Shown here piece by piece: positions 27,566 through 61,120 of a stretch of 64,000 bases of DNA (within the stretch, counting starts at the first letter, position 1; every line of letters begins with the position of its first letter). The notes beneath the pieces are model-generated. The model made no database searches and was not told the DNA's origin. It saw nothing but the letters and a program-made list of their open reading frames with translations. The position numbers and the translations under genes were made by a program. Source of the stretch: an uncultured virus (IMG/VR IMGVR_UViG_3300021962_000002) (Duplodnaviria; Heunggongvirae; Uroviricota; Caudoviricetes); IMG/VR virus record IMGVR_UViG_3300021962_000002; one strand, 5' to 3'.

Positions 27566-27681
27566 CCACACTCCAACCCCAGATCAGGTCGCTAATAGAA
27601 CTCTGCCAGACAAGGCTGTTAGCAGTGTTGCACCACCGCAGGTAAAAGTTCTATCCCCTCATTGCTGGAGCTGGAGTGTGG
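27566..27681 (-). ncRNA. Kink-turn/box C-D-like structured RNA, copy 1
   Basis: 17-bp outer stem (2 G-U pairs, which set the strand), core CAAUGAGGG / AGCGACCUGAU, inner stem AUAGAACUUU/AGAGUUCUAU; paralog at 43151-43252. Confidence 0.75.
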
Positions 27682-27683
27682 TG

Positions 27684-27920
27684 TCGGTCTTGCACCCGAC
27701 TTTGGCGTCACAATTGATTAGTGAGAATCTGCACACCTACATTTCTCAATTTAACTCTGGTTTTACGCGTATGGAGAGATACTACCACATCTTACGTTAA
27801 GTAATTCTCCAGGGCTAAATTGAGAAGACATACTTTAAGCGGTATGTCAGCGCCTTACATAGTCAGCATCCAAATACCTACCAAGTAATACTGCCATCAT
27901 CTAATAACAGTAACTGACTA
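27684..27920 (-). ncRNA. Densely structured region 3' of tRNA-Met
   Basis: Stems 27684-27701, 27743-27760/27809-27826 (18 bp), 27827-27848 and 27860-27866/27914-27920. Confidence 0.55.
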
Positions 27921-27928
27921 AATAAAAT

Positions 27929-28002
27929 TGGTTGCGGGAGAAGGAGTTGAACCTTCGGTTCGGGCTTATGAGACCTGCGTGTTACCGTTACACCATCCCA
28001 CA
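27929..28002 (-). tRNA. tRNA-Met (CAT), initiator-like sequence, encoded CCA
   Basis: TGTGGGATGGTGTAACGGTAACACGCAGGTCTCATAAGCCCGAACCGAAGGTTCAACTCCTTCTCCCGCAACCA folds as a cloverleaf. Initiator versus elongator versus Ile2 identity is not certain. Confidence 0.9.
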
Positions 28003-28007
28003 TTAAA

Positions 28008-28490
28008 TTAATTGCGAGCTTTTAACCTGCGCTCGATCTCACGATTAACATACCAAGCTGCTTTACGCAAGTCTTCTATGTCATTTTCTTTATCGTCTGC
28101 TCTCCAAATATATTTGATTGCGTTTCCAAGACAGAAGTTTAGATGCTCTGTCACTTGAATGCATTCAATACCAGATGGATGAGATTTGTAATGACTAGGG
28201 TGATTAACCTTGTCTTCAACCTTGAGATAACTCACGCACTTTCTGTATTCATCTAACCAGAAATAACTCCCCTCAGGAGTTTTACTCCAAATGAAACCGT
28301 AATATATTGCATCTTTCAAGCAATTGACTTTTTCGTTTTCAAAACTAGCAGGTGGATATAATTTGCAATTAGCAATAGCCAAGTCCCTTATTTTTTCATC
28401 AGGGATTTCTTTCAACCATTCAATTATCGACTTTTCTTTTTGCATAGCTCTGCTGTTTCGGGTCTTGTTCCTGGGTTTTCTTTTAGCCAA
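28008..28490 (-). CDS. DUF3310-like domain protein
   Basis: C-terminal DKVNHPSHY..IECI..FCLGNAIKYIWRA..EDLRKAAWY; start uncertain (TTG). Confidence 0.75.
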   Translation of the reverse strand: MAKRKPRNKTRNSRAMQKEKSIIEWLKEIPDEKIRDLAIANCKLYPPASFENEKVNCLKDAIYYGFIWSKTPEGSYFWLDEYRKCVSYLKVEDKVNHPSHYKSHPSGIECIQVTEHLNFCLGNAIKYIWRADDKENDIEDLRKAAWYVNREIERRLKARN

Positions 28491-28607
28491 CTAAAGAGTT
28501 CCTTGTGGTTTCTTTGTGGTGATTGCATCAGTCTTTGGATGCGCATTGGTGGACCATCCATAGGATAGCGTTTCTTTCCTTTTTCTCTTTGGTATATTGT
28601 TTTCATA

Positions 28608-30440
28608 TTAAAGCCATGGTTTTTGGGTTGGGGAATACATTGGTCGAACAGGACCGGGACTTGGCAGAAAGCGTTTGGTGGATTTGTCAAACCAAGTATT
28701 GGTCATGGGAATCTCACCAGTAGCACGTTGCTTACGGCAGATTAGCTTACCACATGGGGTTGACTCCCAGAACTCTTGCATTGCGTCATCAGGATAGTCA
28801 TTAGCCTTCATCTCTGCAAGACGTTCATGCTTGGATACGTCACGCCATACAGTAATGATATTGTCTGGCATGTTACCCCATTCACTAGCACCTTGAATCT
28901 CGGCTATAGCTGGAGGACTGCTGACACCTTCACCACTCTTACGTGGATGCGCCACAACATGAACATGAACAGGATAGTTGGATGCAAAGACACGGATAGC
29001 GTCAATAGCTTGTGCTTGAGCGGTATTGTCTCCGCGATCAACATCCATCGTCATTACGTTATCAATGACAAAATTAGTTACCCCATACCGTTTATGGGCA
29101 TGGATGAACATGTTAATGAGTTTGAGAGGGTTTGCTTTCTCTCTGCTTTTGTAGATAAAGCAATGTTCACTGAGATACTTGAATGCTTTTTCAAAGTCAT
29201 CATCAGCTACAATATCTGAATTGCCAGTCATGTTCATCAAGATGGAACCGAACGTGCGCTCAGGTGGTTGCTCAAAAGAAGCAACAACACTCATAACCCC
29301 ACGCGCAGCTAAGTTAGCTACTTGATTCTGAACTGCTTGGGACTTACCCTGTGATGTGTAACCAAACCACAGAGTAATCTCATTCTTACGGAAAGTAAGG
29401 TCAAAGCCAGGAATAAAGAACGGATCACCATCAAGAAGATAGTCACCACGAATGAAGTCCATAACCTCACCCTTCATCTCTATGGCATCTACAATCTCGT
29501 CAAGTTGACCCTTGGCAGTTGACTCAATAAGATTGATGATCTCCCCGCCACGGCCAGCCTTGAGCATGTCATTGGCATCCTTGAGAGGAAGATTGACGAT
29601 GATGCATTTATCAATACCTAGACGCGCTGCAACATCAACAGCGCATTTCTTACCAGCTGCATCATTGTCCATGATGAGAACAATGGTGTCGAAGTAGGAA
29701 AGGTATTCATAATCCTCCTTAATCCAATTCATATTGGAAACACCAGAAGGAATAGAAACAGCGGGAAGCCCTAGCTCAAACATGGCTAAGGCATCCCACT
29801 GCCCTTCTACAATAATGAGACGATCACTATTTGTAGAAGGATCACAAACATCTTTGCCAAACAAGTTGTGGACTGGATTGGGACTACACCACATCGTTTT
29901 ATCGTTGTTTGGCATCCAATGTTTGTTAAGACTAAGGCGTGATTCACAGTCGTAATGCGGAAAGATAAGCTCTCCGCGAGCACCTGTGCCAACGCTGTAT
30001 GCTTCAAGTGTGCGCTTACTAATCTTGCGTTCAGCAGCATACTTGATGCAATCCTCGCTAAGAGGTTTGATAGCTTCAGCCAACTCTTTGTAATTTGTTG
30101 ACTTGTTTGCTCCAGAAAAATTCTGAATAGGAGCAATGTTGAGGAAATTACCAAGCCATGCAATGCTTGCGGGAATGGAAATACCTTTGACTAAATGAAC
30201 TAACTTCCATGCACTACCCTTTATTGCAGGGTTGGCATGGTCATAAAACTGACCAATGTTATACGACTTAGTTGAAATACTAAGACTATCTCCAGGATTT
30301 CCGTCAATGTTGCCAACACGGTAGCATCCTGTTTGTTTCTTTGCGGCAGGGAACAAGGTTAAAACGAACTCGTCAATGCGATGTTCTAGCTTTGCTTTGA
30401 TTTCTTGTAAGTCGTATATCGTTTTGGTTTCAGTTATCAT
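28608..30440 (-). CDS. DNA primase-helicase (TOPRIM + SF4 helicase, T7 gp4/Twinkle-like)
   Basis: IVEGQWDALA, MDNDAAG, KDAND; Walker A GYTSQGKS; FVIDN, VVAHPRK, KQR. Confidence 0.92.
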   Translation of the reverse strand: MITETKTIYDLQEIKAKLEHRIDEFVLTLFPAAKKQTGCYRVGNIDGNPGDSLSISTKSYNIGQFYDHANPAIKGSAWKLVHLVKGISIPASIAWLGNFLNIAPIQNFSGANKSTNYKELAEAIKPLSEDCIKYAAERKISKRTLEAYSVGTGARGELIFPHYDCESRLSLNKHWMPNNDKTMWCSPNPVHNLFGKDVCDPSTNSDRLIIVEGQWDALAMFELGLPAVSIPSGVSNMNWIKEDYEYLSYFDTIVLIMDNDAAGKKCAVDVAARLGIDKCIIVNLPLKDANDMLKAGRGGEIINLIESTAKGQLDEIVDAIEMKGEVMDFIRGDYLLDGDPFFIPGFDLTFRKNEITLWFGYTSQGKSQAVQNQVANLAARGVMSVVASFEQPPERTFGSILMNMTGNSDIVADDDFEKAFKYLSEHCFIYKSREKANPLKLINMFIHAHKRYGVTNFVIDNVMTMDVDRGDNTAQAQAIDAIRVFASNYPVHVHVVAHPRKSGEGVSSPPAIAEIQGASEWGNMPDNIITVWRDVSKHERLAEMKANDYPDDAMQEFWESTPCGKLICRKQRATGEIPMTNTWFDKSTKRFLPSPGPVRPMYSPTQKPWL

Positions 30441-30864
30441 TAAATTGTCTTTGATTAATTTGCTCTATTGATTCTACTACAGGATCAAATCCGATTGTTG
30501 CGGCCATGGAGCCAATCAACGAAGTAACAAAATTCAATCCTATTGCATCAGCCATAGGAACTAATTTCATTACCTGAATCATATTTTTCTCCATGATAGC
30601 AACGCTTTCGGCGTCTGGTAGGCTTTTGAATTGGTTAATGTATTCAGCAATTTCTTCTGATTCATTTTCCAATGTTTCTCTAATTTGTCTTTGGAGGTAT
30701 GTTGTCAACGCTCCAACCTCAATTAGAATACTGTTTAGTCCTTTACCTTCAATTTCTGCTCCTTCCCGTCGATCTTGATCACATTGGTTTTCAGATTGAT
30801 TACAATTGCCGCTGTCGGCTCCGTCATACTTTTGGTTCTCTTCCATAGATTGTTTTCGTCGCAA
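30430..30864 (-). CDS. Hypothetical protein (true start probably downstream of 30735)
   Basis: ORF couples to the primase start; its 5' part overlaps the upstream gene. Confidence 0.45.
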   Translation of the reverse strand: MRRKQSMEENQKYDGADSGNCNQSENQCDQDRREGAEIEGKGLNSILIEVGALTTYLQRQIRETLENESEEIAEYINQFKSLPDAESVAIMEKNMIQVMKLVPMADAIGLNFVTSLIGSMAATIGFDPVVESIEQINQRQFNDN

Positions 30865-31730
30865 GTTACATAATCTACTGAAGCGTCCTTACAGGCTGCA
30901 ATCAAATCGTCTACTTGGTCTTTAGATGTTAGGTCAACAATTACTGAGTTGCCTAGTTTTTTGCAGATACTTGCAAGGCTTCTTACGTTTTTAGCTGACA
31001 ATCCAATTTCTTCAGCTTTTTTAAGGATAAGATCTTTATCTGCTTTCTCAATTTTTGAGTAAAATGCTTCTTTGTGGTGACTGAATGACAAGTTGAACTT
31101 ACGTCCATTGTATTCTTTGAACACGCTGACAGCCGTAACAATGGTGTTGTAGGCCTTGTCAGACACTTCAATCACTTGGCTTACGTCAAACTGATTACCA
31201 AAGTGGTTTTCAAGTTCTGAGGTAATGCTACCAAGCAACCAAGTCGAGTAGTCATCAATCTTTTCTGTAACGTCACGCGCTACAAAGATACGATCAATAA
31301 CCTTGTATGCTTGCTCCAACGATGGAGGATTGTCCATTCGCAGAGTTGCTTGACCACCTTCTCGGATAACAAAGTGTTCTGAGATAGGATCAGTTACAAT
31401 CTGCATCAAAGCAGCAATGTCCTGCTTTTTATCGTCAATTTGCTCAGGATCGCTCAGGACGGCAGCCACATCAACTTTGGATACTACTTCCAGATTGGCA
31501 AATGCCTCTGCTTCTAGGCCATTTGTGACTTCTCTGGAGAGCATTGAGATGAATCCATTCACCCTGTTCTTCACTACGCCACTATAAGCATTACTGTTTA
31601 TTTCTTTTCCGCTTCTGTATTGAGCCAGAAGCTCCGCAACAACGTCATAAGGAATTGCGTATTCTTCACTTACTGCACCAATCTCATCATCTTCTAATGG
31701 GATTCCGTCAAGGTATACTGTGTTTGTCAT
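30735..31730 (-). CDS. Putative DNA-binding protein (LmbU-like segment)
   Basis: WLLG..AYNTI..VSVF..RKFNLSFSHHKEA..AEEIGLSAKNVR pattern. Confidence 0.5.
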   Translation of the reverse strand: MTNTVYLDGIPLEDDEIGAVSEEYAIPYDVVAELLAQYRSGKEINSNAYSGVVKNRVNGFISMLSREVTNGLEAEAFANLEVVSKVDVAAVLSDPEQIDDKKQDIAALMQIVTDPISEHFVIREGGQATLRMDNPPSLEQAYKVIDRIFVARDVTEKIDDYSTWLLGSITSELENHFGNQFDVSQVIEVSDKAYNTIVTAVSVFKEYNGRKFNLSFSHHKEAFYSKIEKADKDLILKKAEEIGLSAKNVRSLASICKKLGNSVIVDLTSKDQVDDLIAACKDASVDYVTCDENNLWKRTKSMTEPTAAIVINLKTNVIKIDGKEQKLKVKD

Positions 31731-31733
31731 AAA

Positions 31734-31985
31734 TTATTCTTCTTCACTAAATGTCTCTAGTCCGATTCCTTTTTTTCCAGCCTCTCTAAGCAGCAGGTCG
31801 TAAGCGTTCGGTGGGTCAGGTTTATCCATGCTGAATCTGGCTGCAAGTTTTAATTTTGTCAAAATTTGACATTCATTTCTGTTCACTGTTTCCCACCTGC
31901 CTGTTTCTTTTATGAAGTGGATTTGAAGAAACATGTTCGCCATCTTGTCCCAACTACTAATCAGGGCTGTTTTGACTGTATTCAT
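31734..31985 (-). CDS. Hypothetical protein
   Basis: 83-aa ORF in a tightly packed run. Confidence 0.55.
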   Translation of the reverse strand: MNTVKTALISSWDKMANMFLQIHFIKETGRWETVNRNECQILTKLKLAARFSMDKPDPPNAYDLLLREAGKKGIGLETFSEEE

Positions 31986-32223
31986 TTTGCATTTTCTCTA
32001 AAACTTTTCGTGCAATTGATGCCATCTCAAAAATAACTGAAGCGTCATCTTGAAATAGCAAGTTTCTTTTAATTTGCCATGGATCTGCAATTACTTTCAA
32101 TACCTCAACCATGTCTGGCAAATACATTGCTGCAACAACATCTGCTCTGCTTTGTTCGATGCCTTCAACGATTTCCAAATCCCATGGCCCTGGAGTGATG
32201 TCTTTTAAGATTGATCTACTCAT
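31957..32223 (-). CDS. Hypothetical phage protein (TPGPW N-terminus)
   Basis: ITPGPW motif common in small phage proteins. Confidence 0.6.
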   Translation of the reverse strand: MSRSILKDITPGPWDLEIVEGIEQSRADVVAAMYLPDMVEVLKVIADPWQIKRNLLFQDDASVIFEMASIARKVLEKMQNEYSQNSPD

Positions 32224-32516
32224 AATTCTTTTAAGATTCTGACTGGCAGGTTAATTTCTTGTGAATACTTATCAATGACAGCTTTGTTTTGAGAAACCAT
32301 CACCAGATTGTCATTGTCGTAAATAGCATAAATGACCTTTTTCTGTGGCGCTATCTTGTATTCATAACGACCCCAATTCCATTCTGGACACAAGTCTAAT
32401 TCAAATTCTTCATCATCGCAAAGGAATGGTCTTGAAAGCACTTCTCCGCCATTAGAGTAATGAAGCATGACCTTCATCATTTCTTGAATTCTATTTAATT
32501 CTAATTCATTAATCAT
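32220..32516 (-). CDS. Hypothetical protein, P-x-W..Y[RK]IxP family
   Basis: Similar pattern to 43848, 44631 and 49679. Confidence 0.6.
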   Translation of the reverse strand: MINELELNRIQEMMKVMLHYSNGGEVLSRPFLCDDEEFELDLCPEWNWGRYEYKIAPQKKVIYAIYDNDNLVMVSQNKAVIDKYSQEINLPVRILKEL

Positions 32517-32650
32517 TTTGTTTTTTTGTTAATTTGAGTTTAAGTAATTGGAGGCGTAGTTTCCATTGATTGTTTTTATGGCTTGGCTTTATTGCCAAGT
32601 ATTTTCCATTAGTAAAAATAAACCACAATTGCATATTCTTTAGATTAAAT

Positions 32651-32711
32651 GCCTCGCCAAGATAGGTTTTGCTTGTCCATCAATTTGTATATGATGCTAT
32701 CCTGACGAGGC
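32651..32711 (-). other. Long RNA stem-loop
   Basis: 15-bp GCCUCGUCAGGAUAG/CUAUCUUGGCGAGGC (G-U pairs on the - strand) enclosing a CAUCA/UGAUG hairpin. Confidence 0.55.
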
Positions 32712-32746
32712 TATTCCTAATTCATCACTCGATGAAAGGAAAGTTT

Positions 32747-33751
32747 TTAGTTGGCTAAAGCAACTGCTGACTCAAGGAGTTTGTTACCACGTTTGACATT
32801 GGTATCCCAATCAATCTCAAAGCGTTGAGCTGCAATGGTTTTGGTTAATGCTGAAGCACCCCAGTTGCTGCTGTAGTTTTGAGCACCAGCTTCTTTACGA
32901 TTGGATGACTCATGAGTTTCGAATTCTGTCAATGCTTGGAATGCATCAAGACGTGTGCGACCTTCGTTACCACGACCAGACTCAAACAGCTCACCAATAC
33001 GCGCAGCTTTCTGAACAAGAGCGTTTGTTCCCTTTTCCATGTTGCGACCCTGAACACCAGCTGCCCATGCCTTAGCTTCATCTCTGGAGCATTCTTTCTC
33101 ATATGCGCGTTCAAGCATGGACTGGAACAAGTTGGACGTTCCAGCAAAGTCATCAATAGCATCAATGAGACGCGCTACATTGACCTCAAGCATTTGCGTG
33201 TGCTTGGCTTTGCCAATCTCTTTGCCTGATGTCATAGATGCCATGAAGGTATTGTTGCACACTGTGCAGAAGTTAAGGTATCTAGCCGTGAGTGCGGTAG
33301 TCTTGTCAAAAGAATCCAATACGGTAATGAAATCCTCAAACTTGCGACCAGCAACCTCAAATCCCTCAGTAACCTTAAGCGAAGCAAATAGCTTGCGACG
33401 ATTATCAACTGTGCCAGCAGACACAATCTGGTAAGGTGTTTGACCCATGCCCTTCTTGATAACTTCCCAAAACATTTTAATAGAGGATGGTTGATAGCTG
33501 GAGCCGTATGGGTCGCCAATTGGAAGCCAGTCATCATTAGCGAGCAGAATCTTAAACTCTGGATCTTCTACGTAAACATCGCGTGTTACACCAAAGTAAT
33601 CTTGCTCTTGTTTCTTGTAGTAGATAGGAGACTCAACAACCTCGAAAGGCATAGAGTTGTCTTGCTTAACCTCGTCAACAATAGTTGTCAGGTTGTGCCA
33701 TGCTTGGTTAAGTCCAGCTTGGATGTCGCGTTCTTTGATTAGGTGTGCCAT
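32747..33751 (-). CDS. DUF932 (DUF945-like) phage protein
   Basis: MAH..AWHNL, SAGTV..RKLF, DSFD, TVCNNT, KHT, AFQALTEFETH. Confidence 0.75.
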   Translation of the reverse strand: MAHLIKERDIQAGLNQAWHNLTTIVDEVKQDNSMPFEVVESPIYYKKQEQDYFGVTRDVYVEDPEFKILLANDDWLPIGDPYGSSYQPSSIKMFWEVIKKGMGQTPYQIVSAGTVDNRRKLFASLKVTEGFEVAGRKFEDFITVLDSFDKTTALTARYLNFCTVCNNTFMASMTSGKEIGKAKHTQMLEVNVARLIDAIDDFAGTSNLFQSMLERAYEKECSRDEAKAWAAGVQGRNMEKGTNALVQKAARIGELFESGRGNEGRTRLDAFQALTEFETHESSNRKEAGAQNYSSNWGASALTKTIAAQRFEIDWDTNVKRGNKLLESAVALAN

Positions 33752-33792
33752 ATTTTGTTTGTATTTTGTATTGTTTGTTGTAGTTGTTGGCT

Positions 33793-34344
33793 ATGGAGCC
33801 ATCTGGTGTATCAATGAATCCACCTAGTAGGGTGGAGTGGAAAGGGTCAATTATTTATGTCGGAGACGCTAGACAAGCGCTTCGTGAACATAAGATTACT
33901 TTTGAAGAGCGTGATGAGTTTCTTGGAGCTATCTATGCAGCTAATCCAGCATTGGTCAGTAATCCCAATGCTAAGTCTGTGTATCGTATGCATCTTGGAG
34001 ACTTCCAACATTACCTACAGGCACTAAAGTCAAGATGGTCAAATGGAGTTCCATTAGTCAGTAAAGAAGAAGCATTACGCAGAACAAATATTTGTCAAAG
34101 TTGTCCAGCAAAGTCACAAGTTAATGGTTGTTATGGATGTAGTGGTTTATCAAAGCTCCTAATGCACATACCTGAAAAGTTCATGGAGAACAATGCAGGT
34201 TGCGCAGTGTGTAAATGTTATCTTAACAACAAGGTTTGGATGAGTGAAGAGGTGTTATCTGCTGATTCTAGAGATCTTGAATATCCTCCGAATTGCTGGA
34301 TGAACGAAGTTTTTCCTCCGCAGTCACCTGTTGGTGACACTTAA
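33793..34344 (+). CDS. Cys-rich putative metal-binding protein, inverted relative to neighbours
   Basis: RTNICQSCP..GCYGC..GCAVCKCYL..K..PPNCW. Confidence 0.65.
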   Translation: MEPSGVSMNPPSRVEWKGSIIYVGDARQALREHKITFEERDEFLGAIYAANPALVSNPNAKSVYRMHLGDFQHYLQALKSRWSNGVPLVSKEEALRRTNICQSCPAKSQVNGCYGCSGLSKLLMHIPEKFMENNAGCAVCKCYLNNKVWMSEEVLSADSRDLEYPPNCWMNEVFPPQSPVGDT

Positions 34345-34717
34345 TGCACAAAGCTCTGAATCCAGAAGCTTCGCAGAATAAGCGTTTAGCAAAACTAGGA
34401 AGGTCTTCAAAGTCTCTTAAGCTACCAGCTGGAATAATGTGATCAATTTGAATTTCTTTCGCAGGATGCACATCTTTACAGATAGCGCACTTGTAATGCT
34501 TTGCTGCTCTATTGGTCTTTTTATTCACCCTAGTGTCAACATAAGCTGCTTTTAGGCAATCAAACTTAGGTTGCCATCTGGAGCTAGCACTACGTAATGC
34601 GCTTCTAATAAACCCAAAGAACCTAGATTTTGTCCATGTCCCACTGTTGTAAGGACGATCTATATCTAGTTTTCTCTTTACTGGCTTTGCTTTTTTCTTA
34701 CTCATATTCTTTCTCAT
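34268..34717 (-). CDS. HNH endonuclease
   Basis: IRSALR..RW, YKCAIC, QIDHI, LFCE..ALCIKCH. Confidence 0.8.
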   Translation of the reverse strand: MRKNMSKKKAKPVKRKLDIDRPYNSGTWTKSRFFGFIRSALRSASSRWQPKFDCLKAAYVDTRVNKKTNRAAKHYKCAICKDVHPAKEIQIDHIIPAGSLRDFEDLPSFAKRLFCEASGFRALCIKCHQQVTAEEKLRSSSNSEDIQDL

Positions 34718-34946
34718 GACAAAGCTCGCATATTAAACGCAAGTCTACAATCTTTTGTAGTGAATCTTTTTTGATTCCTTTTGCAGGAAAACTTACGAAT
34801 GATTTTTTTGTCATTGAAAAGTAACGCTCAACATCATCGTTGATTTCTTGAGCTGTGGCTTTGCTTTTGCAATCCTGACACTCAATTACAATATCTTTTA
34901 GTTCTATTAATTCATCCATGTCAAACCAGTGATTTAGGGCTATCAT
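34698..34946 (-). CDS. Small Zn-ribbon protein
   Basis: CQDC..CELC. Confidence 0.55.
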   Translation of the reverse strand: MIALNHWFDMDELIELKDIVIECQDCKSKATAQEINDDVERYFSMTKKSFVSFPAKGIKKDSLQKIVDLRLICELCHEKEYE

Positions 34947-35574
34947 CTTTTTCTATTGTTTTCTTAAACATTGTATTGGAAGCTTCATGATACACTACGA
35001 TACCTTCTGGTTTCATAAATCCTGGAGCAGCTTTGCTTCCATATTCTTTCAAGTGGTTTAGGCATTGCTCAATAGCTTCTTCTTTGAATTCTCCATCATA
35101 CAATACAGGCACTAAATCGCAGCACTCTGGAAGAACATCTTGATACTTGATGATGTTTGCGTCACCTTTTTTAATCAATTGAGGTTCTTCGTTGTGTTTA
35201 CACCACCGAATTGTATTGAATAAGCTAAAACGCTTTTCTTGAAGTCCGTAGTTGCATTGGATACTTTTACCCCACCATTCGCCAAAATGCTGTCCTGAAC
35301 CAAGCTTGCGCAATTCCCTCCTATTCTCTTGCGCCCATTTAGCAAATCCATAGTTGTCATTGCTTGGAAAAATCCATCGAGTTCTACTACCAGCATACAT
35401 GAACATGATGTTGTCACCTTCTTGCCATACATCAATACAGCCATCTGTGTCCATCTCATCATTAATGTTGTATTTTACAATACAGATTTGAGCATTAGTT
35501 CCGTCAATTTTCTCTGTAACCACTGTCCTACGTGATAGTCTTGCTATTTTTGGAAATCCTTTAAAGTCAATCAT
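34921..35574 (-). CDS. RNA ligase (Rnl2-like nucleotidyltransferase domain)
   Basis: FPKI, motif I TEKIDGTN, GSR, FGEWWG, FSLFN, PVLY, motif IV EGIVV, motif V FKK. Confidence 0.85.
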   Translation of the reverse strand: MIDFKGFPKIARLSRRTVVTEKIDGTNAQICIVKYNINDEMDTDGCIDVWQEGDNIMFMYAGSRTRWIFPSNDNYGFAKWAQENRRELRKLGSGQHFGEWWGKSIQCNYGLQEKRFSLFNTIRWCKHNEEPQLIKKGDANIIKYQDVLPECCDLVPVLYDGEFKEEAIEQCLNHLKEYGSKAAPGFMKPEGIVVYHEASNTMFKKTIEKDDSPKSLV

Positions 35575-35577
35575 AAG

Positions 35578-35603
35578 AAAAAAGCAGACTATATTCGGTC
35601 TGC
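35578..35603 (-). terminator. Intrinsic terminator-like hairpin
   Basis: GCAGAC-8nt-GUCUGC-UUUUUU just upstream of the ligase ATG. Confidence 0.55.
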
Positions 35604-35663
35604 CAGCGAGTTAATTTAATTATTTTTAACGAATTCGCGCCATACTTTCATGACGACTTCCTC

Positions 35664-36239: not shown

Positions 36240-36269
36240 ATATTATTTCAATTGAAGTTTGTTTTCAGA

Positions 36270-36554
36270 TCAAAAATCCTCACTAGCGGCAGCTTCCAAT
36301 TCTTTTGATGTTTTAATACCATCGCGAACATAAACTACCTTGCCGTTACCAACATAGGTTTTGGATTTCTTTGCTTTGCGGTCTTCTTCGTTTTGACTGA
36401 TCGTAGCAGACACGTTTTGTTTGTAGTTGTCATTCTTGTCATCTACAAAGATCGTCAATGGAATGTAAGTGCCTGATTTACCAACAATAAACGTAGCGGG
36501 ATCTAGTTTATCGAGGTCTTCTTTTTTTAAGCTAATGCTAATGATTGCTGACAT
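36270..36554 (-). CDS. Small conserved phage protein, possible SSB-like
   Basis: GKSGTY..SQ.EEDRKAK..YVGNGK, acidic end EDF; next to ERF. Confidence 0.55.
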   Translation of the reverse strand: MSAIISISLKKEDLDKLDPATFIVGKSGTYIPLTIFVDDKNDNYKQNVSATISQNEEDRKAKKSKTYVGNGKVVYVRDGIKTSKELEAAASEDF

Positions 36555-36558
36555 AATG

Positions 36559-37140
36559 TTATTTATTTAGTCTAGTTTTGTTTGTTTGGTATGAGGATTG
36601 AACTCTTGGGTTCTCGCCATAAGGAGTTGTTTTTGCTTTTGCAAGTTTTGCGTCAAGCTCGGCAATGGTAGATTGAGCATTGAAAGATGCAATGATTTTA
36701 TCAATCATTTCTGAATTTGGTTCAGAAGCACTTTCTGATTTGCCATGATCGTTTGTAGCGTCAGCATCTTTGGTGTCATCAATACAGAACAAGCCGTTAA
36801 GAGCATATTTGCGCGAGTAAGAAGAGCAAGCTCCTGTAACCTGTGCAGAGTCCTGACCTTTTTTATCTTCAGCTTCACGCGCAAAAGCACTTACTTCCAA
36901 TGTTTCTCCTGTATCAACGCTCACTAAACGTGCTGTTGATTTAACATAAATCCTATCTCCTACCATTTGAATATCGTCACTTATGGTTAACGCAAGGTTA
37001 TTTTTAGCTAGAAGAGGTTTAAGTGCCTCTAAAATCCCTTCTGCATTGCGATAATTGTATTTTGCAAAAGCATTGAATTGATCTTTTGGGCATTTCAAGT
37101 CACGTTGAACTTCTAGTAATTTTTGAGCAATGTCTTTCAT
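36559..37140 (-). CDS. ERF-family single-strand annealing protein
   Basis: KDQFNAFAKYNYR, AREAEDKKGQDSAQVTGACSSYSRKYALNGLF..DDTKDAD. Confidence 0.9.
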   Translation of the reverse strand: MKDIAQKLLEVQRDLKCPKDQFNAFAKYNYRNAEGILEALKPLLAKNNLALTISDDIQMVGDRIYVKSTARLVSVDTGETLEVSAFAREAEDKKGQDSAQVTGACSSYSRKYALNGLFCIDDTKDADATNDHGKSESASEPNSEMIDKIIASFNAQSTIAELDAKLAKAKTTPYGENPRVQSSYQTNKTRLNK

Positions 37141-37144
37141 TTTT

Positions 37145-37576
37145 TTATTTTTGTGTTGGTTGAGTAAGAGCTTTTTCTATTGTCCATCCTCTGTTGATTC
37201 TTGTTCGAATGGTTTGCCTTTTAATGCCAGTGATTTTTTCCCAATCTAGCAAATGTTTTGTTTGATTATCATGGGTTAAATAAATCGTGTTTTCTTTATT
37301 ATTAGCATTCATTTGAGGTGTTACGAATCGGCAGTTTTTAGGTGAATATCCTTCGCTGTTTTTGATTCGATCAAGTTGAAGGCCTTGTTCGTATCCATTG
37401 TTTTCAGCCCATTCAATAAATGCTGCGGCTGAAACCCATTCTTTACATACGGATATTTTTTTTTCTTTGTATGATTTTGTTTTAGGATAGTTTCCCTTGC
37501 ATCTCCGATGCATCTCTTTCCAGACTTCGTGAATTTTGCTTCCTGTTTTTCCGTGCTTGGTGTAACTTCTTTTCAT
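37145..37576 (-). CDS. HNH homing-type endonuclease
   Basis: W..M..RC, VCKEW, LDRIKNSEGYSPKNCRF..N.NN; C-terminal DNA-binding helix. Confidence 0.85.
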   Translation of the reverse strand: MKRSYTKHGKTGSKIHEVWKEMHRRCKGNYPKTKSYKEKKISVCKEWVSAAAFIEWAENNGYEQGLQLDRIKNSEGYSPKNCRFVTPQMNANNKENTIYLTHDNQTKHLLDWEKITGIKRQTIRTRINRGWTIEKALTQPTQK

Positions 37577-37649
37577 GAATGGGTGAATAATTACTCACGC
37601 TTTTAAGGTTGTCAACTGCTTTTTGCATAATGTTGTTTGCTTTAGTTGG

Positions 37650-38480
37650 CTAATTCTCTGCTTTGAATTGAGAGCAACAATGCGCAAATCCACAGAAAGA
37701 ACTACAGAAAGTCTTTTCACCTGCTCGTTTTTCGATGATTTCTCCAGACTTAATGTTCTCTTCAGCTTCCGCTCTAGTATCATACACTCGTCTTGCACGT
37801 TGTGCATCTGGTTTCTTAACTGCAAACGTATCTGCTTTTGCCCATTGTTCATCCAAGGTGCATCTCCTTGGTTCCCCAAGCGAAGCTTTATGATGTTCGT
37901 TTACAGTTTCGTTGATAATCTTTTCAGCATATTCTGCGTCATAAGGATGAACAAAGATCTTGATTGGTGTTTTAGGATAGGACGGATCTACTTTGCTTTG
38001 CATGTATTTCCAGTCACGTTGAAAATAGACAACACCTACATACTCACACTTGATACCATTCTGTTCTGCAAGCCAAGCATTCATCTGGACTTGCTTGTAA
38101 TGTTCATCTTTCGCCTTCTCTTGGACACCACCAGTGGCTTTATAGTCATATAGGCAGTTATCAGCCCAATAGTCCATCTGACCAGAAATGGTAACGATAT
38201 CATTACCAACTTTAACTTTAGCAAAGTTTCTGATCTCAGCTAGCTCACCTTTCTCGGGACGCGCATACTTCTCAAGGATACTATGGATTGCTGTGCCTAG
38301 GAGCGCCATGAAGGACGCATACTCGTCTTTTACGGGTTCTGACTGCGTAGCGAGGTAAGTGCGCTGTGGAGGGCTTACAAGCTGCGTAACGGTATAGTCT
38401 GATTGACCCTTGCTGTATTCACTTGATGCTAATGCGCGAGCAAAAGGTGCGGGTAGTGATGTGATTGCGTTATTGTTCAT
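37650..38480 (-). CDS. PD-(D/E)XK Cas4-like exonuclease
   Basis: GTAIHSILE, SGQMD..YDYK, QVQMNAW, C-terminal C..FC..CC cluster. Confidence 0.8.
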   Translation of the reverse strand: MNNNAITSLPAPFARALASSEYSKGQSDYTVTQLVSPPQRTYLATQSEPVKDEYASFMALLGTAIHSILEKYARPEKGELAEIRNFAKVKVGNDIVTISGQMDYWADNCLYDYKATGGVQEKAKDEHYKQVQMNAWLAEQNGIKCEYVGVVYFQRDWKYMQSKVDPSYPKTPIKIFVHPYDAEYAEKIINETVNEHHKASLGEPRRCTLDEQWAKADTFAVKKPDAQRARRVYDTRAEAEENIKSGEIIEKRAGEKTFCSSFCGFAHCCSQFKAEN

Positions 38481-38677
38481 GATTTTTCATTCAGTATTGA
38501 TCTTCCGCTAGCCATAACAAGTATTAAATACTGCGGGAATGAATTACCCATAGCAAGGCTAATACCATTTAGCAATGCCCATTCGATGGTTGCTGCTTTT
38601 TTTGTTTTTTGTTTAACTCCTTCTAGTTCAAGTAGTTTCCTTAATCTGATTTGAATTTCTTCTAATTTTGGATTCAT
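38477..38677 (-). CDS. Hypothetical protein
   Basis: Coupled 66-aa ORF. Confidence 0.55.
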   Translation of the reverse strand: MNPKLEEIQIRLRKLLELEGVKQKTKKAATIEWALLNGISLAMGNSFPQYLILVMASGRSILNEKS

Positions 38678-38681
38678 TTTA

Positions 38682-38984
38682 TTATGATTGGCTTTGGTTG
38701 GTTGCTTTTGCTATTGCAGACTGAACCATTTGCCAAGCTTCTAAAGGAATATGATTATCATCATTTTCTAGATTTTTTAGCGCTTCCAGCATATCTGGGG
38801 CAGCAGCAATAAGGTAAGCGTTTGCTAATCTTTCTTCTTTTGATCTACCTTGCACTCCTCCATCATCATCTTCTCCGTAACCATAGATTACTACGCTAAA
38901 TGCATCGGCTTCAATTCCGGGTCGGTCACCGTAACTATCACTAAATACAGTCCAAGGTCCAGATGTGTGTTTACTTTTGTTCAT
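38682..38984 (-). CDS. Conserved phage hypothetical protein (HTxGPW..ANAxLIAAAP)
   Basis: KHTSGPW..ANAYLIAAAPDMLEALK. Confidence 0.7.
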   Translation of the reverse strand: MNKSKHTSGPWTVFSDSYGDRPGIEADAFSVVIYGYGEDDDGGVQGRSKEERLANAYLIAAAPDMLEALKNLENDDNHIPLEAWQMVQSAIAKATNQSQS

Positions 38985-38991
38985 AATGTTT

Positions 38992-39258
38992 TTATGTTTT
39001 GCTTGATTTACGATGCTGTATTTTCAACGCATTTCCTGCATCTTGATCATCTTCATTAACAATCGCTTGCAATACAATGAAAAGTGCAGCGTTGCAAAGT
39101 TCCCAATAAGGTTCTCCTATTCGTTTTTTAACAATATGCTCAACACTCCAGACTTCTTGATAAGCGCTGAACAATGATTGTGCTTCTTTGGAAAAACGAT
39201 CTGGCAATTTAAGTATATCCATATTCTCTTGCAATTTTTTTCCAATGTTCAACTTCAT
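38992..39258 (-). CDS. Hypothetical protein
   Basis: ORF in packed run; start may be the internal MDIL. Confidence 0.5.
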   Translation of the reverse strand: MKLNIGKKLQENMDILKLPDRFSKEAQSLFSAYQEVWSVEHIVKKRIGEPYWELCNAALFIVLQAIVNEDDQDAGNALKIQHRKSSKT

Positions 39259-39493
39259 CTACTAGATTATTAACTTCATCTTGAAGGTTGTCATTCTTTT
39301 CGTTTAGGACATCAATTTTGTATTTCCATTCTTCTTTGCAATGCTTGCATACTTCTACAGTCACTTGAGGATGGCCTCTTAATCTTGAAGTTCTGGTATC
39401 TGCATGGTCACAAATACCCTCTCCGCAAGTTCCGCAAAATACCTCAAAGTCATAATCAATAACATGATCTATTTCTACTCTAAAGTTTGGCAT
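39209..39493 (-). CDS. Zn-finger + coiled-coil protein
   Basis: CGTC..CKHC followed by heptads. Confidence 0.55.
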   Translation of the reverse strand: MPNFRVEIDHVIDYDFEVFCGTCGEGICDHADTRTSRLRGHPQVTVEVCKHCKEEWKYKIDVLNEKNDNLQDEVNNLVDEVEHWKKIAREYGYT

Positions 39494-39496
39494 AAC

Positions 39497-40660
39497 TTAA
39501 ATAATTGATACTAGTCTTGCAATGCTATCGCAAAGATATGTTTCATAACTACGTGTCTCATCAAGGTAACCTTCGCAATGCGCTAACTCTTCAATGAGGG
39601 TAGAGACGAGATAGTCCATATTCTTGAATGCTTGCAGACTCAAATGAATCTCGCCATTTTCAACAAAAGCAACTAAATGCTTGTCTTCAGTTTTAATAAA
39701 TTTGATTTCATAATTTGTATTGAAACCAGCACGTTTGATTTTATTGACTGCTTGTTGAAGCATTACAGATTGAATCTCTTCAAGTTCTACAGTTACATAT
39801 ACTGTTTTTTCCCTTGGAAGTTCTCTCTTGAGATTATTCATCAAGGTCGCTGGATGATTGATCTTAGCTTCAGATACAACATCTTTAAATGATTCACTCC
39901 ATTTACTGTAACTTGGAATAGGGAATGACTCTTCTTCGTTATCTTTAGAGAAGATCCAATCATTCATTGATTCTGGATGTTCTTGAGTAACAATGATTTG
40001 AGCAATATCCCAACTAAGCGTCCAGTTATCTTTGATTGTTCTATCTTCGGTCAATTCAATCTTGTTATGAATATTGTATCCATACTTAGCATTCTTGATT
40101 GTGCCGACAAATACATCTTTGAAGAATACTTTACCAACATACTTGCCATTTAGCACTTGAAGCTTACCGTAATCATGAACCACGTTATCTAAATGACTGT
40201 TACCAGTAAGAAAGTATTCGTCATAATTCTTGGCAAGCTCATTAAATTCTGCTGAGTCAACTTCAATAACGCTGCCATTTTTAATGTTTGGTGCATCAAA
40301 ATCCATTTTTCCATCTTCGTCCATAGTGTTGCTATATAGCTCTCTAAGGACTGTCCAAGGCTCCCAATGAGCACCATAGTGCATCGTAAATGGAAGTGCT
40401 TTGTCATTGTCATAAACAACATTGATGTCAGTTCCTCTGAATGTATCTTTAGTCTGGCTAAAAACATGTTCTTCGGGAATACCATTAACATAGTTAGTGA
40501 TCTTGATTTGCCAGCCAAGTCGCAGTGAGATAGCGATAGCGTATTTAAGTCCAGTGCCAAACCTACCAATAGGATTAGTAGAGTTAGGCTTAGACGAGAC
40601 TCCAATCATTGACCAGCTTTTTTGGTCAATCTGTGTATTTGTTACGAAGAATGTTTTCAT
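39497..40660 (-). CDS. GHKL-type ATPase-like protein with C-terminal zincin-like segment
   Basis: IGRFGTGLKYAIA, LRELYSNTMDE; TLIEELAH at the C-terminus. Confidence 0.7.
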   Translation of the reverse strand: MKTFFVTNTQIDQKSWSMIGVSSKPNSTNPIGRFGTGLKYAIAISLRLGWQIKITNYVNGIPEEHVFSQTKDTFRGTDINVVYDNDKALPFTMHYGAHWEPWTVLRELYSNTMDEDGKMDFDAPNIKNGSVIEVDSAEFNELAKNYDEYFLTGNSHLDNVVHDYGKLQVLNGKYVGKVFFKDVFVGTIKNAKYGYNIHNKIELTEDRTIKDNWTLSWDIAQIIVTQEHPESMNDWIFSKDNEEESFPIPSYSKWSESFKDVVSEAKINHPATLMNNLKRELPREKTVYVTVELEEIQSVMLQQAVNKIKRAGFNTNYEIKFIKTEDKHLVAFVENGEIHLSLQAFKNMDYLVSTLIEELAHCEGYLDETRSYETYLCDSIARLVSII

Positions 40661-40680
40661 TGCAATTTTACCTCAAGGAA

Positions 40681-41073
40681 CTAGGAAACATACTTGATCA
40701 TTTTATCCCATGTATATTCTAGGTTTTCTATTTCATAATGAAATAGGAATATATGATTACCATTTGTCACGTGAACTCCTGCTTCTAAATTTTGCTTTGG
40801 TAGTTCAACGCTGTAATACCAATTGTAGTTTGAGTCCATTGATACATATCCAGCTTCTGAGATATTTTTTGCAGCTAGATTTTTATTGATCAAGTTGAAA
40901 AGATAATGTCCTTCAGGTCCTTTTACTCGACATAGCTTAACGGGTTCTTCGGGTGGGGCTTTCATTGTTAATGTCACCTCATCTCCAGGATTCATCCCTT
41001 TATACGCATCAACAAAAAGTTGTAATGCTTCTTTAAGGTTTTCAGTTTCAATAACTTTTATGTTTTTACTCAT
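40681..41073 (-). CDS. Hypothetical protein
   Basis: 130-aa ORF. Confidence 0.55.
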   Translation of the reverse strand: MSKNIKVIETENLKEALQLFVDAYKGMNPGDEVTLTMKAPPEEPVKLCRVKGPEGHYLFNLINKNLAAKNISEAGYVSMDSNYNWYYSVELPKQNLEAGVHVTNGNHIFLFHYEIENLEYTWDKMIKYVS

Positions 41074-41558
41074 TTGATTTCTAGGTTGTGTTGCAGTGGT
41101 GATTTAAGGATAGACAAAAGAATCTCAAGGTTCTTATCGTTTTCTGGTCTAAGTAGAGGATTTTCTTTTACATTTGTTTGTGTATTTACTAGTGCTGTGA
41201 TTTCTTTTTTGACATCACTATACATCAAAGACTTGTTTCGACCAAGATCATTTCTTTCTGCTAGCAGTTTATCTGTTTCATCATTACTAAATTCAAGTTC
41301 AATGCGAATTGTTTTACCCCAAACTGACGACATACAACTTGATAACTCTTCTTCTTTTTTATTAACAAGGTTAGCTATTGCGATTTCATGAATCTTCTTA
41401 TCAATCTCTTTACGCCTTTCTTGCATTGCTTTATTATGCGCAATACGTTGTTCGATTTCTTTTTGAACTAAAGCTTCAATGATTTGCGTTTTTGTTGCTT
41501 TGGGAGTCGTTGACTCCCTTGTGCTTTTGATGATTTGAGTTGACATATTAGTAGGCAA
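41070..41558 (-). CDS. Hypothetical coiled-coil protein
   Basis: 162-aa ORF coupled to neighbours. Confidence 0.55.
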   Translation of the reverse strand: MPTNMSTQIIKSTRESTTPKATKTQIIEALVQKEIEQRIAHNKAMQERRKEIDKKIHEIAIANLVNKKEEELSSCMSSVWGKTIRIELEFSNDETDKLLAERNDLGRNKSLMYSDVKKEITALVNTQTNVKENPLLRPENDKNLEILLSILKSPLQHNLEIK

Positions 41559-42711
41559 AAATGTTTAGTGTTTTAGCTTTTGTAAGTTTCACTTCAAGTT
41601 TTTTTGTTTTAATGTAAATTGACCCTTTAGATTTTTTCATTTCAATAATATCTCTTTCTTGAATATCAAATGAATCACGCTCATACGTTTCTTCACAATA
41701 AGCATAATTAATAGAAATTTCTCGATTGTATGAGTAATCGCTAAATGGCTTACAAAATAAAGAAATATATTCAAAAGTTTTTGTTTTTGTATATTGTGCA
41801 TATGTTTCAATATTTGGAATCTGCTCAAGCATATATTTCTTTTTTGCATGATTTCCTTCTGAGTATGCTATATATTTAAGACCTTTTTCTTCAAACTCTT
41901 TATTTAAGTCTGGCAATAATGTTGTTTTCGCAACTGTTACAACAGCACTGTATGGATTATCGTCAATGCTTTGAATGTTTATAATATCATTAAATTTATC
42001 AGGAGTTTCGTTATGAATAAGACATTCTTCAATCAAGCAAGAAATAGCATCAGGTGAAATTGCGCCTGAGGCTTCAACGTATTTATGTAATTCTTTATTT
42101 AGTGTTGCATCGGATACTTTGTCATCAATCATTTGATGTAGAGCAATTTCAGGAAACTCTTCAAATCGCTTATGGTAACGAACTCGCCCAGGTCTATTAT
42201 TGAAGTATTTTCCAATGTCAGAATTATTACTTGTTAGCAAAAATAAATGCTTATTATGTGTTGTTCCATCAAGCAGACTAAGCATTGAGTTTTTATGATC
42301 TTCATCACCATATACTTTTTCAAACTCATCAATAAAAACAATACATGGATTAGGGATGTTGCTCAGGAACGTCTTGAAGCCTTCATTACTATGCGCTGCA
42401 TTAACGCAAATCACTGGCATAGATGAGCCAATGCAAATTTGTTTAGCAGTTAAAGTTTTTCCGCAACCTTTAGGTCCAGAAAGCAAAACGCTCATTCCTT
42501 TATTTAGTTGCTTAAATGTTTTAATTACACGCAAACTAAAGTCTGGGCAATCACCATAGATTTTGTCTGGTAAGGTAAATGCTGCACGATGTTCAAGATA
42601 GTATCCTGACATTGGATCATAACCAATATCGTAAAAATCTGTGCTTAATTTGTTGTTAATTGCTGTGGCTCCCGTTAATTGGGTTCTGTTTCCTGATTGG
42701 ATGGTATTCAT
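41548..42711 (-). CDS. AAA+ ATPase
   Basis: Walker A GPKGCGKT, Walker B FIDEFEK, LDG, TSN, NRPGR. Confidence 0.9.
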   Translation of the reverse strand: MNTIQSGNRTQLTGATAINNKLSTDFYDIGYDPMSGYYLEHRAAFTLPDKIYGDCPDFSLRVIKTFKQLNKGMSVLLSGPKGCGKTLTAKQICIGSSMPVICVNAAHSNEGFKTFLSNIPNPCIVFIDEFEKVYGDEDHKNSMLSLLDGTTHNKHLFLLTSNNSDIGKYFNNRPGRVRYHKRFEEFPEIALHQMIDDKVSDATLNKELHKYVEASGAISPDAISCLIEECLIHNETPDKFNDIINIQSIDDNPYSAVVTVAKTTLLPDLNKEFEEKGLKYIAYSEGNHAKKKYMLEQIPNIETYAQYTKTKTFEYISLFCKPFSDYSYNREISINYAYCEETYERDSFDIQERDIIEMKKSKGSIYIKTKKLEVKLTKAKTLNIFAY

Positions 42712-42735
42712 TTTTTTGTGTGTTTGGAGATTGGC

Positions 42736-43380
42736 AACCGTTCTAGTTCTCCCGAACTTCCTGCAACAGGAACTAGACTTATAATTACAAGTTAGGACGA
42801 ATACTTGTATCAGTTTTAAGTGCTCTATGAAAGCAACGGTTATTTATTGGAGAATGGTGTCCTGTGCGCTCGGTATTGTGAGCCTGACTTATTCTTGGTT
42901 GGTTACGTCCAACATTCAGAGGAATTTAGTAGCAGCTTTCATCCGCAGAACTTTTTATCCAGCTTACCGTATACTGGGCTAGCTTGACGCTACTAGCGGT
43001 TCCACAAGGGTTACTCTTTAATACAGAGTTCCTAATGCCTAAGGCAGCGTCTTTCCGCTGTGTCTTTGTGGACGGTAACTGGGTTTTACCTTATTGGCGT
43101 GTATAACCAGTCACAGGGATGCACCCCCGCTCTTGCCTATCTAAGAATTACCACACTCCAACTTCCGATCAGGTCGCTCATTCAGATGTCGTGCTTCATG
43201 CCTGAAACCGTATGCTCTATTAAATGCCCTCATTGCGGAGGCTGGAATGTGGTCTCTGTCTTTCCAGAGTGTCCCGATTTTACACAAGCTATTGGAGAAT
43301 TGGTTTCTCCGCTTTTACCAAAACTTGCTTTGGAGCCATGCCTTCTGTCTCGTTGTGGCTATGCGCTTCTTGCATCTGGA
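42736..43380 (-). ncRNA. Cluster of at least four stem-closed structured RNA modules
   Basis: Closing stems at 42736/42841, 42959/43082, 43151/43252 and 43263/43380, each enclosing several hairpins; no - strand ORF of 60 aa or more in the gap. Confidence 0.65.
43151..43252 (-). ncRNA. Kink-turn/box C-D-like structured RNA, copy 2
   Basis: Same core CAAUGAGGG / AGCGACCUGAU and 17-bp outer stem as 27566-27681; different inner stem (CAUUUA/UGAAUG). Confidence 0.75.
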
Positions 43381-55802: not shown

Positions 55803-55811
55803 GAACAGCCC

Positions 55812-58127: not shown

Positions 58128-58132
58128 ACTTT

Positions 58133-58366
58133 ATGACAGAAGCAGAACAACAAGCGTTAGGCCGTATTTTGGCCACGCCATTATTGGAGAAAGTATTCTC
58201 CGAGATTCCACGCACTAGATGCAAGATAGATGTTGATACAGTGGAAAAAGCCGCTTTATCACAGGCTTACAATATGGGGCTTTTAGCTGGGCTAAACGCG
58301 TTCTATGAGTTAGCTAAAACCAAACAAACTGTAACATTAACAACGAGAAAGTTGCGCCATGAGTAA
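58133..58366 (+). CDS. Small head-module protein
   Basis: 77-aa helical ORF between portal and scaffold. Confidence 0.55.
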   Translation: MTEAEQQALGRILATPLLEKVFSEIPRTRCKIDVDTVEKAALSQAYNMGLLAGLNAFYELAKTKQTVTLTTRKLRHE

Positions 58367-59519: not shown

Positions 59520-59543
59520 TTTTTGTAAAATAGTTTTTGACAC

Positions 59544-61108: not shown

Positions 61109-61120
61109 TGTTCATAGTCT

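Follow-up and report, generated by a model that had tools for sequence, protein, structure and literature searches.

A widespread family of small phage RNAs carries an invariant kink-turn core and is found mainly in tRNA operons

A 64,000-nt stretch of DNA from an uncultured virus of the Caudoviricetes (IMG/VR record IMGVR_UViG_3300021962_000002; hereafter the window, meaning the whole stretch analysed) carries two copies of a small structured RNA built around a kink-turn (k-turn). This RNA is a widespread family of small RNAs of uncultured aquatic phages that is uncatalogued in Rfam 15, and its main setting is the phage tRNA operon, a context absent from an earlier sequence-only reading of the same DNA. 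Members are approximately 80-135 nt long and consist of a closing stem (P1), an internal core that combines the k-turn with a 5-nt AGCGA bulge, and an inner stem (P2) that bears a variable apical domain. We propose, with a probability of about 0.5, that the element is a processed phage small RNA whose invariant k-turn/AGCGA core acts as a recognition platform for a conserved partner.

The fold was examined in an alignment of 33 representative sequences that covered 11 pairs of P1 and the first 3 pairs of P2. All 14 pairs showed double changes, with 186 double-change cells in total and 91.8% of cells paired. This level of pairing was reached by none of 500 column shuffles, and sliding the partner strand by 1-3 columns reduced it to 42-51%. 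P1 alone contained double changes in 11 of 11 pairs, with 91.5% of cells paired, and thus provides the canonical helix expected 5' of the bulge. G.U cells outnumbered A.C cells by 53 to 11; the folded strand is therefore one strand, as had been argued from the G-U pairs of the two window copies. A covariance model built from the relatives recovered homologs, and the covariation among them was strong.

A scan of viral contigs for both exact cores, 35-65 nt apart, identified 89 loci; the number of distinct sequences among them is 58-61, according to the flank chosen. P1 abutted the cores in every one of these loci, as well as in 5 loci from metagenome-assembled genomes (MAGs), with a length of 5-26 bp (median 11) and sequences that were unrelated to one another (58 distinct). 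By covariance model, five phage contigs of 109-155 kb contained one copy per contig, and in one contig a second copy (locus L165) was found 1.4 kb from the first. The exact-core scan of 185,579 bacterial genomes (596 Gb) yielded 25 matches, and P1 was present in only 5 of them (L096, L101, L103, L104 and L114), all of which lay on MAG contigs, several with phage-like runs of tRNA genes. The other 20 lacked P1, lay in coding-like sequence and were rejected as chance matches. Because so few bacterial matches carried P1, the family is essentially viral. The MAG bins with the element were labelled Bacteroidota (Flavobacterium, Saprospiraceae), Proteobacteria and Planctomycetota (Phycisphaerales), and the core was identical across them. 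When the regions around the two window copies and two further members were compared by BLAST with 50,697 phage records, no relative emerged; the only matches, where there were any, were to tRNA-Met.

The suggestion that the RNA belongs to no named family held up. At gathering thresholds, Rfam 15 reported only tRNAs in the window, in 10 loci and in 12 short member loci, and on the elements themselves nothing appeared at E values up to 5-10 except a chance match to HOTAIR_2 (E = 4). Text searches of 8.4 million papers for the core strings returned unrelated primers and small RNAs only, and no description matching a k-turn RNA of phage tRNA clusters was found in that literature.

The genomic setting of the family was determined by running ARAGORN on 114 loci. 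tRNA genes on the same strand as the element were found in 61 loci, and in total 171 tRNAs lay on the same strand and 0 on the opposite strand. Spacing within the arrays was often tight. P1 frequently started 1-4 nt past the end of a tRNA (1-2 nt past the upstream tRNA in L011, L016 and L056), and its end lay 4-7 nt ahead of the next tRNA in L002, L003, L011 and L015. Thus, within arrays, the element occupies a tRNA-like slot. The elements were called as tRNAs by neither ARAGORN nor Rfam RF00005, though both call the flanking tRNAs. Many other members lay 60-380 nt from the nearest tRNA or had none within 1.5 kb. In 27 of 58 distinct members, P1 was followed by a U-run (at least 5 U in the next 9 nt), and the closing stem would therefore double there as a terminator-like hairpin that ends the tRNA operon.

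Three further features of the tRNA arrays were observed beside the element. In one subgroup (L001:1440-1500; L004 minus strand, 1590-1560), a leader hairpin just 5' of P1 contains GGACUCCAA(U/G)GGGC, the same sequence as in the anticodon loop of a tRNA-Trp encoded 70-150 nt upstream; the variants CUCUAAG and CUCCGAAG also occur. Between the element and the following tRNA-Arg, a second stretch is conserved (CAUACAGUGCGCCCAAGUGAUAAUG...; L009 at about 600-720 on the minus strand, L016, L029, L096 and L101), possibly a further small RNA. Finally, ARAGORN called an unusual tRNA-like gene, whose 'anticodon' has only 2 nt (aa), at L043:1413-1483 (minus strand) and also in L010, L032, L053 and L069; this gene starts about 7 nt past the P1 of the element, or 18 nt past the 3' core.

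Within the window, the sequence-only reading had described two minus-strand copies that share the cores CAAUGAGGG and AGCGACCUGAU, and both the coordinates and the cores were verified (Table 1). The 17-bp stem attributed to both copies was complete in copy 1, with 15 Watson-Crick and 2 G.U pairs; in copy 2, a single C.A mismatch takes the place of a U.G pair of copy 1. The compensatory change from A-U to C-G beside the core was borne out, and a second one, from C-G in copy 1 to U-A in copy 2, was detected. The inner stems are wholly different in sequence and nevertheless both pair, over 11 bp in copy 1 and 6 bp in copy 2. The joint core pattern was matched in 0 of 100 shuffles; the two-core pattern used in this shuffle test allowed a gap of 30-60 nt and so matched copy 2 only, because the gap in copy 1 is 62 nt. 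The 11-mer AGCGACCTGAT occurs exactly twice in the window, and the best covariance-model match there after the two copies scored 10.7 bits.

Table 1. Positions of the RNA copies, their parts and associated features in the window, and of the loci compared for domain replacement
Feature	Position	Strand	Description
Copy 1 of the RNA (116 nt)	27566..27681	-	P1, k-turn core, P2 with two-hairpin apical domain, AGCGA bulge, P1'; covariance model 58.9 bits
Copy 2 of the RNA (102 nt)	43151..43252	-	Scaffold as in copy 1, inner domain unrelated; covariance model 71.2 bits
Copy 1, 5' core CAAUGAGGG	27656..27664	-	-1b C, bulge AAU, G.A/A.G, GGG of the non-canonical stem
Copy 1, 3' core AGCGACCUGAU	27583..27593	-	5-nt AGCGA bulge, CCU paired with GGG, GA of the tandem sheared pairs, -1n U
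Copy 2, 5' core CAAUGAGGG	43227..43235	-	
Copy 2, 3' core AGCGACCUGAU	43168..43178	-	
Copy 1, P1	27681-27665 with 27582-27566	-	
Copy 1, P2	27655-27645 with 27604-27594	-	
Copy 1, AGCGA; CCUGAU	27593-27589; 27588-27583	-	
Copy 2, P1	43252-43236 with 43167-43151	-	
Copy 2, P2	43226-43221 with 43184-43179	-	
Copy 2, AGCGA; CCUGAU	43178-43174; 43173-43168	-	
Copy 1, 5' hairpin P0	27683..27700	-	GUCGG-loop-CCGAC; single A between P0 and P1
Copy 2, 5' hairpin P0	43254..43269	-	CUCUG-GAAAGA-CAGAG
tRNA-Met(CAU)	27929..28002	-	About 250 nt upstream of copy 1, on the same strand; the tRNA setting usual for the family
Domain-replacement locus	L071:1380-1680		
Domain-replacement locus	L076:1385-1685		
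Domain-replacement locus	L080:1380-1680		

Both window copies are intergenic, lying between open reading frames (ORFs); the ORF that seems to adjoin copy 1 most likely starts at an internal Met about 130 nt further on. Each copy is preceded on its 5' side by a hairpin (P0) of 5-7 bp, which a single A separates from P1. L006 and L061, both relatives, have such a hairpin at the same place, and its sequence differs from one to the next. Since P1 begins with CCA, P0 followed by A and CCA resembles the end of an acceptor minihelix. No U-run follows P1 in either copy, and no sigma-70-type promoter or terminator stands out in their surroundings. As neither copy lies in a tRNA array or has a U-run, processing must differ for the window copies.

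Other parts of the window were also inspected. Between copy 2 and an AAA-ATPase gene (41551-42711), approximately 440 nt (42712-43150) contain no convincing ORF, and conservation of this stretch does not extend to L006 or L028. A single ORF of 5,576 amino acids (aa) occupies positions 8966-25696 on the plus strand, with no Pfam match in either half, and the other large ORFs (e.g., 54075-64000) are mostly without a Pfam or PHROG match. The DNA sequencing runs listed for the phage are marine, estuary or freshwater. Because most of its ORFs lack a match and its DNA runs are aquatic, the phage of the window is very novel and aquatic.

The internal loop of the RNA has the sequence signature of a k-turn. 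Standard k-turns are described as a 3-nt bulge followed by tandem G.A/A.G pairs (PMC8191799), and, as the sequence-only reading had proposed, this arrangement is predicted in both window copies and in 33 of 33 aligned members. The core strands read P1, C, AAU, G A, G G G on the 5' side and C C U, G A, U, P1' on the 3' side. Over 8 nt, the bulged strand CAAUGAGG is identical to that of the U4 small nuclear RNA (snRNA) k-turn construct U4-Kt, as given in PMC2952850. The 3b.3n pair is G.U, which satisfies neither of the fold-permitting rules; according to PMC4382518, folding in metal ions alone needs 3n=G or 3b=C, and the k-turns of U4 and box C/D RNAs are protein-dependent. Three pairs past the G.A pairs, the 3' strand carries the invariant AGCGA bulge.

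Variation within this core was rare. In 89 of 89 exact-core loci, -1b:-1n is a C.U mismatch, which is fixed by the scan pattern. Among the matches listed, variants at this end position had A:U (L151), C with G (L121 and L165) or C with C (L168), and all four were recovered by the covariance model at 27.6-62.7 bits. In the sections of PMC8191799 that treat this position, C:G and A:U fold well, G:C is unfolded and U:A is weak. A scan for AGDGA returned 4 matches, one of which was a real variant, AGUGA (C-to-U; L376). Scans excluding the canonical base found no real variant of G29/U126 among 21 matches, none of G31/C124 among the 11 non-canonical matches listed and none of the AAU loop among the 149 loci listed. 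RNAalifold draws a shifted helix instead of the k-turn (A25-U129, U26-A128 and so on). Because the core is invariant, covariation cannot choose between the two registers at most positions; the three variants at position 129 break A25-U129 of the shifted register, and in them a pair of the k-turn register is made or kept.

Outside the core, the RNA is modular. The sequence-only reading had proposed a constant scaffold with a variable payload, and this is supported in that P1 and the core stay constant within a clade as the inner domain is swapped for unrelated sequence; the guide role suggested for the payload found no support. In the clade of the window, the 17-bp P1 is nearly constant and carries at least four unrelated inner domains (copy 1, copy 2, L061 and L376). 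The apical domains do vary as described, from a single hairpin up to two-hairpin junctions, and share no common loop motif. When locus pairs with both 248-nt flanks at least 75% identical were compared (n = 57), the variable domains were at least 90% identical in 49 pairs, 60-62% identical in 2 and less than 60% identical in 6, against a shuffled-domain baseline of 53%. In the comparison of L071 with L076, the flanks were 92% and 99% identical and the variable domain 60%. Between L071 and L076/L080, a block of about 107 nt that comprises the leader hairpin and the variable domain has been replaced within flanks that are 88-99% identical, and the right-hand breakpoint of this block is the AGCGACCUGAU core. 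This cassette-like turnover of the apical domain suggests a role in conflict or specificity.

Several steps can be proposed by which such an RNA would be made and would act. The two window elements would be paralogous genes for a small structured phage RNA that is made on the strand of the phage tRNAs and, in many phages, is co-transcribed in the tRNA array. Ordinary tRNA end-processing would free the RNA from the array transcript, and the closing stem with its U-run would also serve as the operon terminator in roughly half of the members. The predicted product would fold into P1 (5-26 bp, free sequence), a U4/box C/D-type k-turn (C, AAU, sheared G.A/A.G, G.U, G-C, G-C), the invariant 5-nt AGCGA bulge past the k-turn, and then P2 with its freely replaceable apical domain. 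P1 and P2 would supply helices only. Recognition would rest on the 20 invariant bases, folded into a rigid, kinked module to which a partner conserved across many hosts binds. Because the phages share no protein and the core is identical across the phyla of the MAG bins, we infer that the conservation of this partner extends across hosts. It could be a protein outside the L7Ae family, or an RNA such as tRNA or the ribosome. The swappable apical domain may add lineage-specific specificity or may be tolerated cargo.

Several observations weigh against this recognition-platform proposal. The usual -1b:-1n combination, a C.U mismatch, is foreign to standard k-turns, in which it is usually C:G. Of the 20 core positions, 13 were held fixed in every scan, so their invariance is by construction, and the G.A pairs and most core positions never vary, so covariation says nothing on them. 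No cultured phage with the element was found, and the sequencing runs listed for the phage of the window include no RNA run. The window copies themselves lie outside tRNA arrays, with copy 2 at 4.4 kb from the nearest tRNA. A binding protein of the L7Ae/YbxF type, for which the sequence-only reading had suggested a binding check, was not encountered: none of 5 large phage contigs (two rated complete), none of the 58 scanned ORFs of the window and none of 5 element-bearing MAGs, which are incomplete, contained PF01248. Further, no protein family was common to the window and four large element-bearing contigs, G002-G005 (BLASTP, E 1e-4), and no gene family spanned differing clades within 1.5 kb on either side of the element.

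The genes that do neighbour the element are clade-specific clusters or HNH homing endonucleases, the latter being typical of phage tRNA regions. The largest cluster, an uncharacterised protein of 237 aa, was present at 29 of 94 loci. Among the large phage contigs G001-G005, Ro60 (TROVE, PF05731) was found in 0 of 5 and PF00124 was absent; no element had an Rfam match to Y RNA (YrlA). An RNA ligase gene (PF09414, phrog_548) lies at 34924-35574 of the window on the minus strand, and in G002 an RNA ligase gene at 104344-104841 (minus strand) shares the strand of the element and lies 1.2 kb upstream of it; overall, PF09414 was detected in 1 of 5 large contigs. HNH homing-endonuclease genes, together with an unannotated multi-copy paralogue family of 193-218 aa, were also seen near the element and tRNAs at 54430-58720 of G003 and 101264-101842 of G002.

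Targets for base pairing were sought as well. The stretch 5' of CUGA is the invariant AGCGAC followed by paired P2, and hence there is no free guide. Complementarity did not rise above that of shuffled sequences: the longest complements to the window measured 11-12 nt, compared with 10-14 nt in shuffles, and the mean for 153 phage tRNAs was 8.78 nt, compared with 8.82 nt. No anticodon-like loops were conserved among members. The likeness to box C/D RNAs was limited to the presence of CUGA and to AUGAGGG, which matches 5 of 7 positions of RUGAUGA, with no conserved C'/D' boxes or other invariant columns. Mimicry of rRNA was considered for 16S h22 (GAGGG/CCUG) and the 23S L1 stalk (GAGCCGACCUUGAAAU); the likeness was partial, the structural setting different, and the resemblance was judged to be chance.

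A tentative extension is that the RNA is an effector, either ribonucleoprotein-type or RNA-only, in which the k-turn/AGCGA scaffold recruits a conserved host machine and the exchanged apical domain acts as a 'specificity cassette'. As part of this joint possibility, the ribosome, a tRNA-processing or tRNA-targeting enzyme, or a defence sensor are candidate machines.

An RNA directed at tRNA itself seems unlikely. Here, the element would be a tRNA mimic or decoy, or a binder of the tRNA elbow, with a bent, tRNA-size shape whose AGCGA docks tRNA or a tRNA-handling enzyme or nuclease; it would, if this unlikely account is right, protect or tune the tRNA supply of the phage. The same-strand, tRNA-like slot in arrays fits such a role, as does the identity of AGCGA with the AG-bulge consensus of T-box RNAs, in which the C is variable (PMC11404447), the position at which the single C-to-U variant was found here. 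In addition, AGUA faces GAAA immediately above P2 in one subgroup, and RNA ligase genes occur in the window and close to the element in G002. However, the motifs lie on the 3' strand directly beside the k-turn, which is not the T-box order, and there is no second T-loop, specifier or T-box sequence; neither the Rfam T-box model (RF00230) nor the tRNA models matched. The lack of conserved anticodon-like loops, the chance-level complementarity to phage tRNAs and the restriction of RNA ligase to one of five large contigs also speak against it.

The 20 invariant bases might instead constitute the catalytic core of a new ribozyme that trims the transcripts of tRNA arrays by self-cleavage or processing, much as ribozymes occur beside phage tRNAs, a possibility that we regard as improbable. 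An internal loop so extremely conserved, set between two helices of free sequence, would suit a ribozyme, no encoded protein partner was found, and in several arrays P1 starts 1-4 nt past a tRNA 3' end; but many members, copy 2 included, are 60-380 nt from a tRNA or have none within 1.5 kb, and no conserved junction sequence marks the would-be cleavage site. Moreover, the core corresponds to a textbook k-turn, which is an architectural motif, and Rfam ribozyme families were unmatched at E values up to 5-10.

There is little to favor a small-molecule aptamer or riboswitch-like element, in which a metabolite would bind in the k-turn/AGCGA pocket and P1 with the U-run would control read-through of the operon. 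k-Turns do build ligand pockets in several riboswitches (PMC4316175), the core is invariant, and P1 precedes a U-run in 27 of 58 distinct members; many members, both window copies included, nonetheless lie between two tRNAs or lack a U-run, and neither a conserved downstream gene nor a conserved anti-terminator pairing was found.

It is very improbable that the element works as DNA, whether as an inverted-repeat recombination or homing site or as a miniature inverted-repeat transposable element whose boxes are read in the duplex and whose RNA fold is a by-product. Its long terminal inverted repeat, its patchy distribution across unrelated phages, the coincidence of the 3' core with the recombination breakpoint between L071 and L076 and the HNH endonuclease genes near the element in G003 are all compatible with such a site. 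These features are set against the strand asymmetry of 53 G.U to 11 A.C cells, an orientation matched to the tRNAs in 171 cases versus 0, and an unpaired core that is the exact k-turn consensus, which would be meaningless in duplex DNA; further, one copy per genome is the rule, and neither target-site duplications nor a transposase was noted. Least probable of all is a box C/D-like guide RNA that would be bound by an L7Ae-family protein and direct modification of a target RNA, since CUGA (box D) and AUGAGGG at the ends of the closing stem and a U4/box C/D-type k-turn with U at L3 are offset by the lack of a free guide and of conserved C'/D' boxes, by complementarity at chance level and by the absence of PF01248 from the contigs, ORFs and MAGs searched (Nop5 and fibrillarin were outside this search).

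Phage tRNA clusters are now regarded as tools against host tRNA-targeting defences and as a source of codon supply. ROOL, GOLLD and the stable RNAs of T4 are unexplained non-tRNA RNAs of such clusters, and the k-turn RNA is a compact, widespread addition to them, with about 60 distinct versions in unrelated phages and 20 bases that are almost unchanging. Its small size suits direct biochemistry and structure work. The combination of a k-turn core of the eukaryotic and archaeal type with no recognisable L7Ae in the phages and candidate hosts searched points either to a bacterial protein that reads k-turns and is yet to be described or to a k-turn module that locks itself. Were the effector proposal true, no free-standing system of k-turn small RNAs would have been known before it from viruses of bacteria, and an effector placed in tRNA operons would manipulate translation or counter tRNA-directed immunity. 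Annotation of phage genomes would benefit as well from naming the family and providing a covariance model for it.

Among known systems, the k-turn of the U4 snRNA 5' stem-loop and of box C/D RNAs, which is bound by 15.5K/Snu13/L7Ae, shares the AAU bulge, the tandem G.A/A.G pairs and CUGA on the other strand. As in those RNAs, 3b.3n is not of the ion-folding kind (PMC4382518). The RNA described here differs in being phage-encoded, in its -1b:-1n C.U, in an extra G.U at 3b.3n and in the AGCGA bulge three pairs on, and it has no guide or C'/D'. Stem I of T-box RNAs, as outlined in PMC11404447, has a k-turn at its base together with an AGUA motif and a conserved 5'-AGCGA-3' AG bulge (T-loop), in which C is the variable base. 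The phage RNA likewise has a k-turn, AGCGA with a variable C and, in one subgroup, AGUA opposite GAAA above P2, whereas the order and strand of the modules differ and the distal loop, specifier, antiterminator and downstream gene are lacking. The T-box resemblance is thus one of parts, not homology.

Species 1 and 2 of phage T4 (rnaC and rnaD) are small stable RNAs of a tRNA cluster that are coprocessed with tRNAs and have no known function. From IMG/VR, Fremin et al. (2023) reported 8,495 unnamed csRNAs, some of them tRNA-like (PMC10690425); the text of that paper contains no kink or k-turn and no tRNA-array motif, and its alignments may still list the present RNA unnamed. ROOL and GOLLD, according to PMC12286853, are phage or prophage RNAs that likewise lack a known function or protein partner and often lie near tRNA islands. 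In contrast to the phage RNA described here, which is 80-135 nt long with a single two-helix core, ROOL and GOLLD are large (GOLLD exceeds 800 nt), form multimeric cages and are represented in Rfam.

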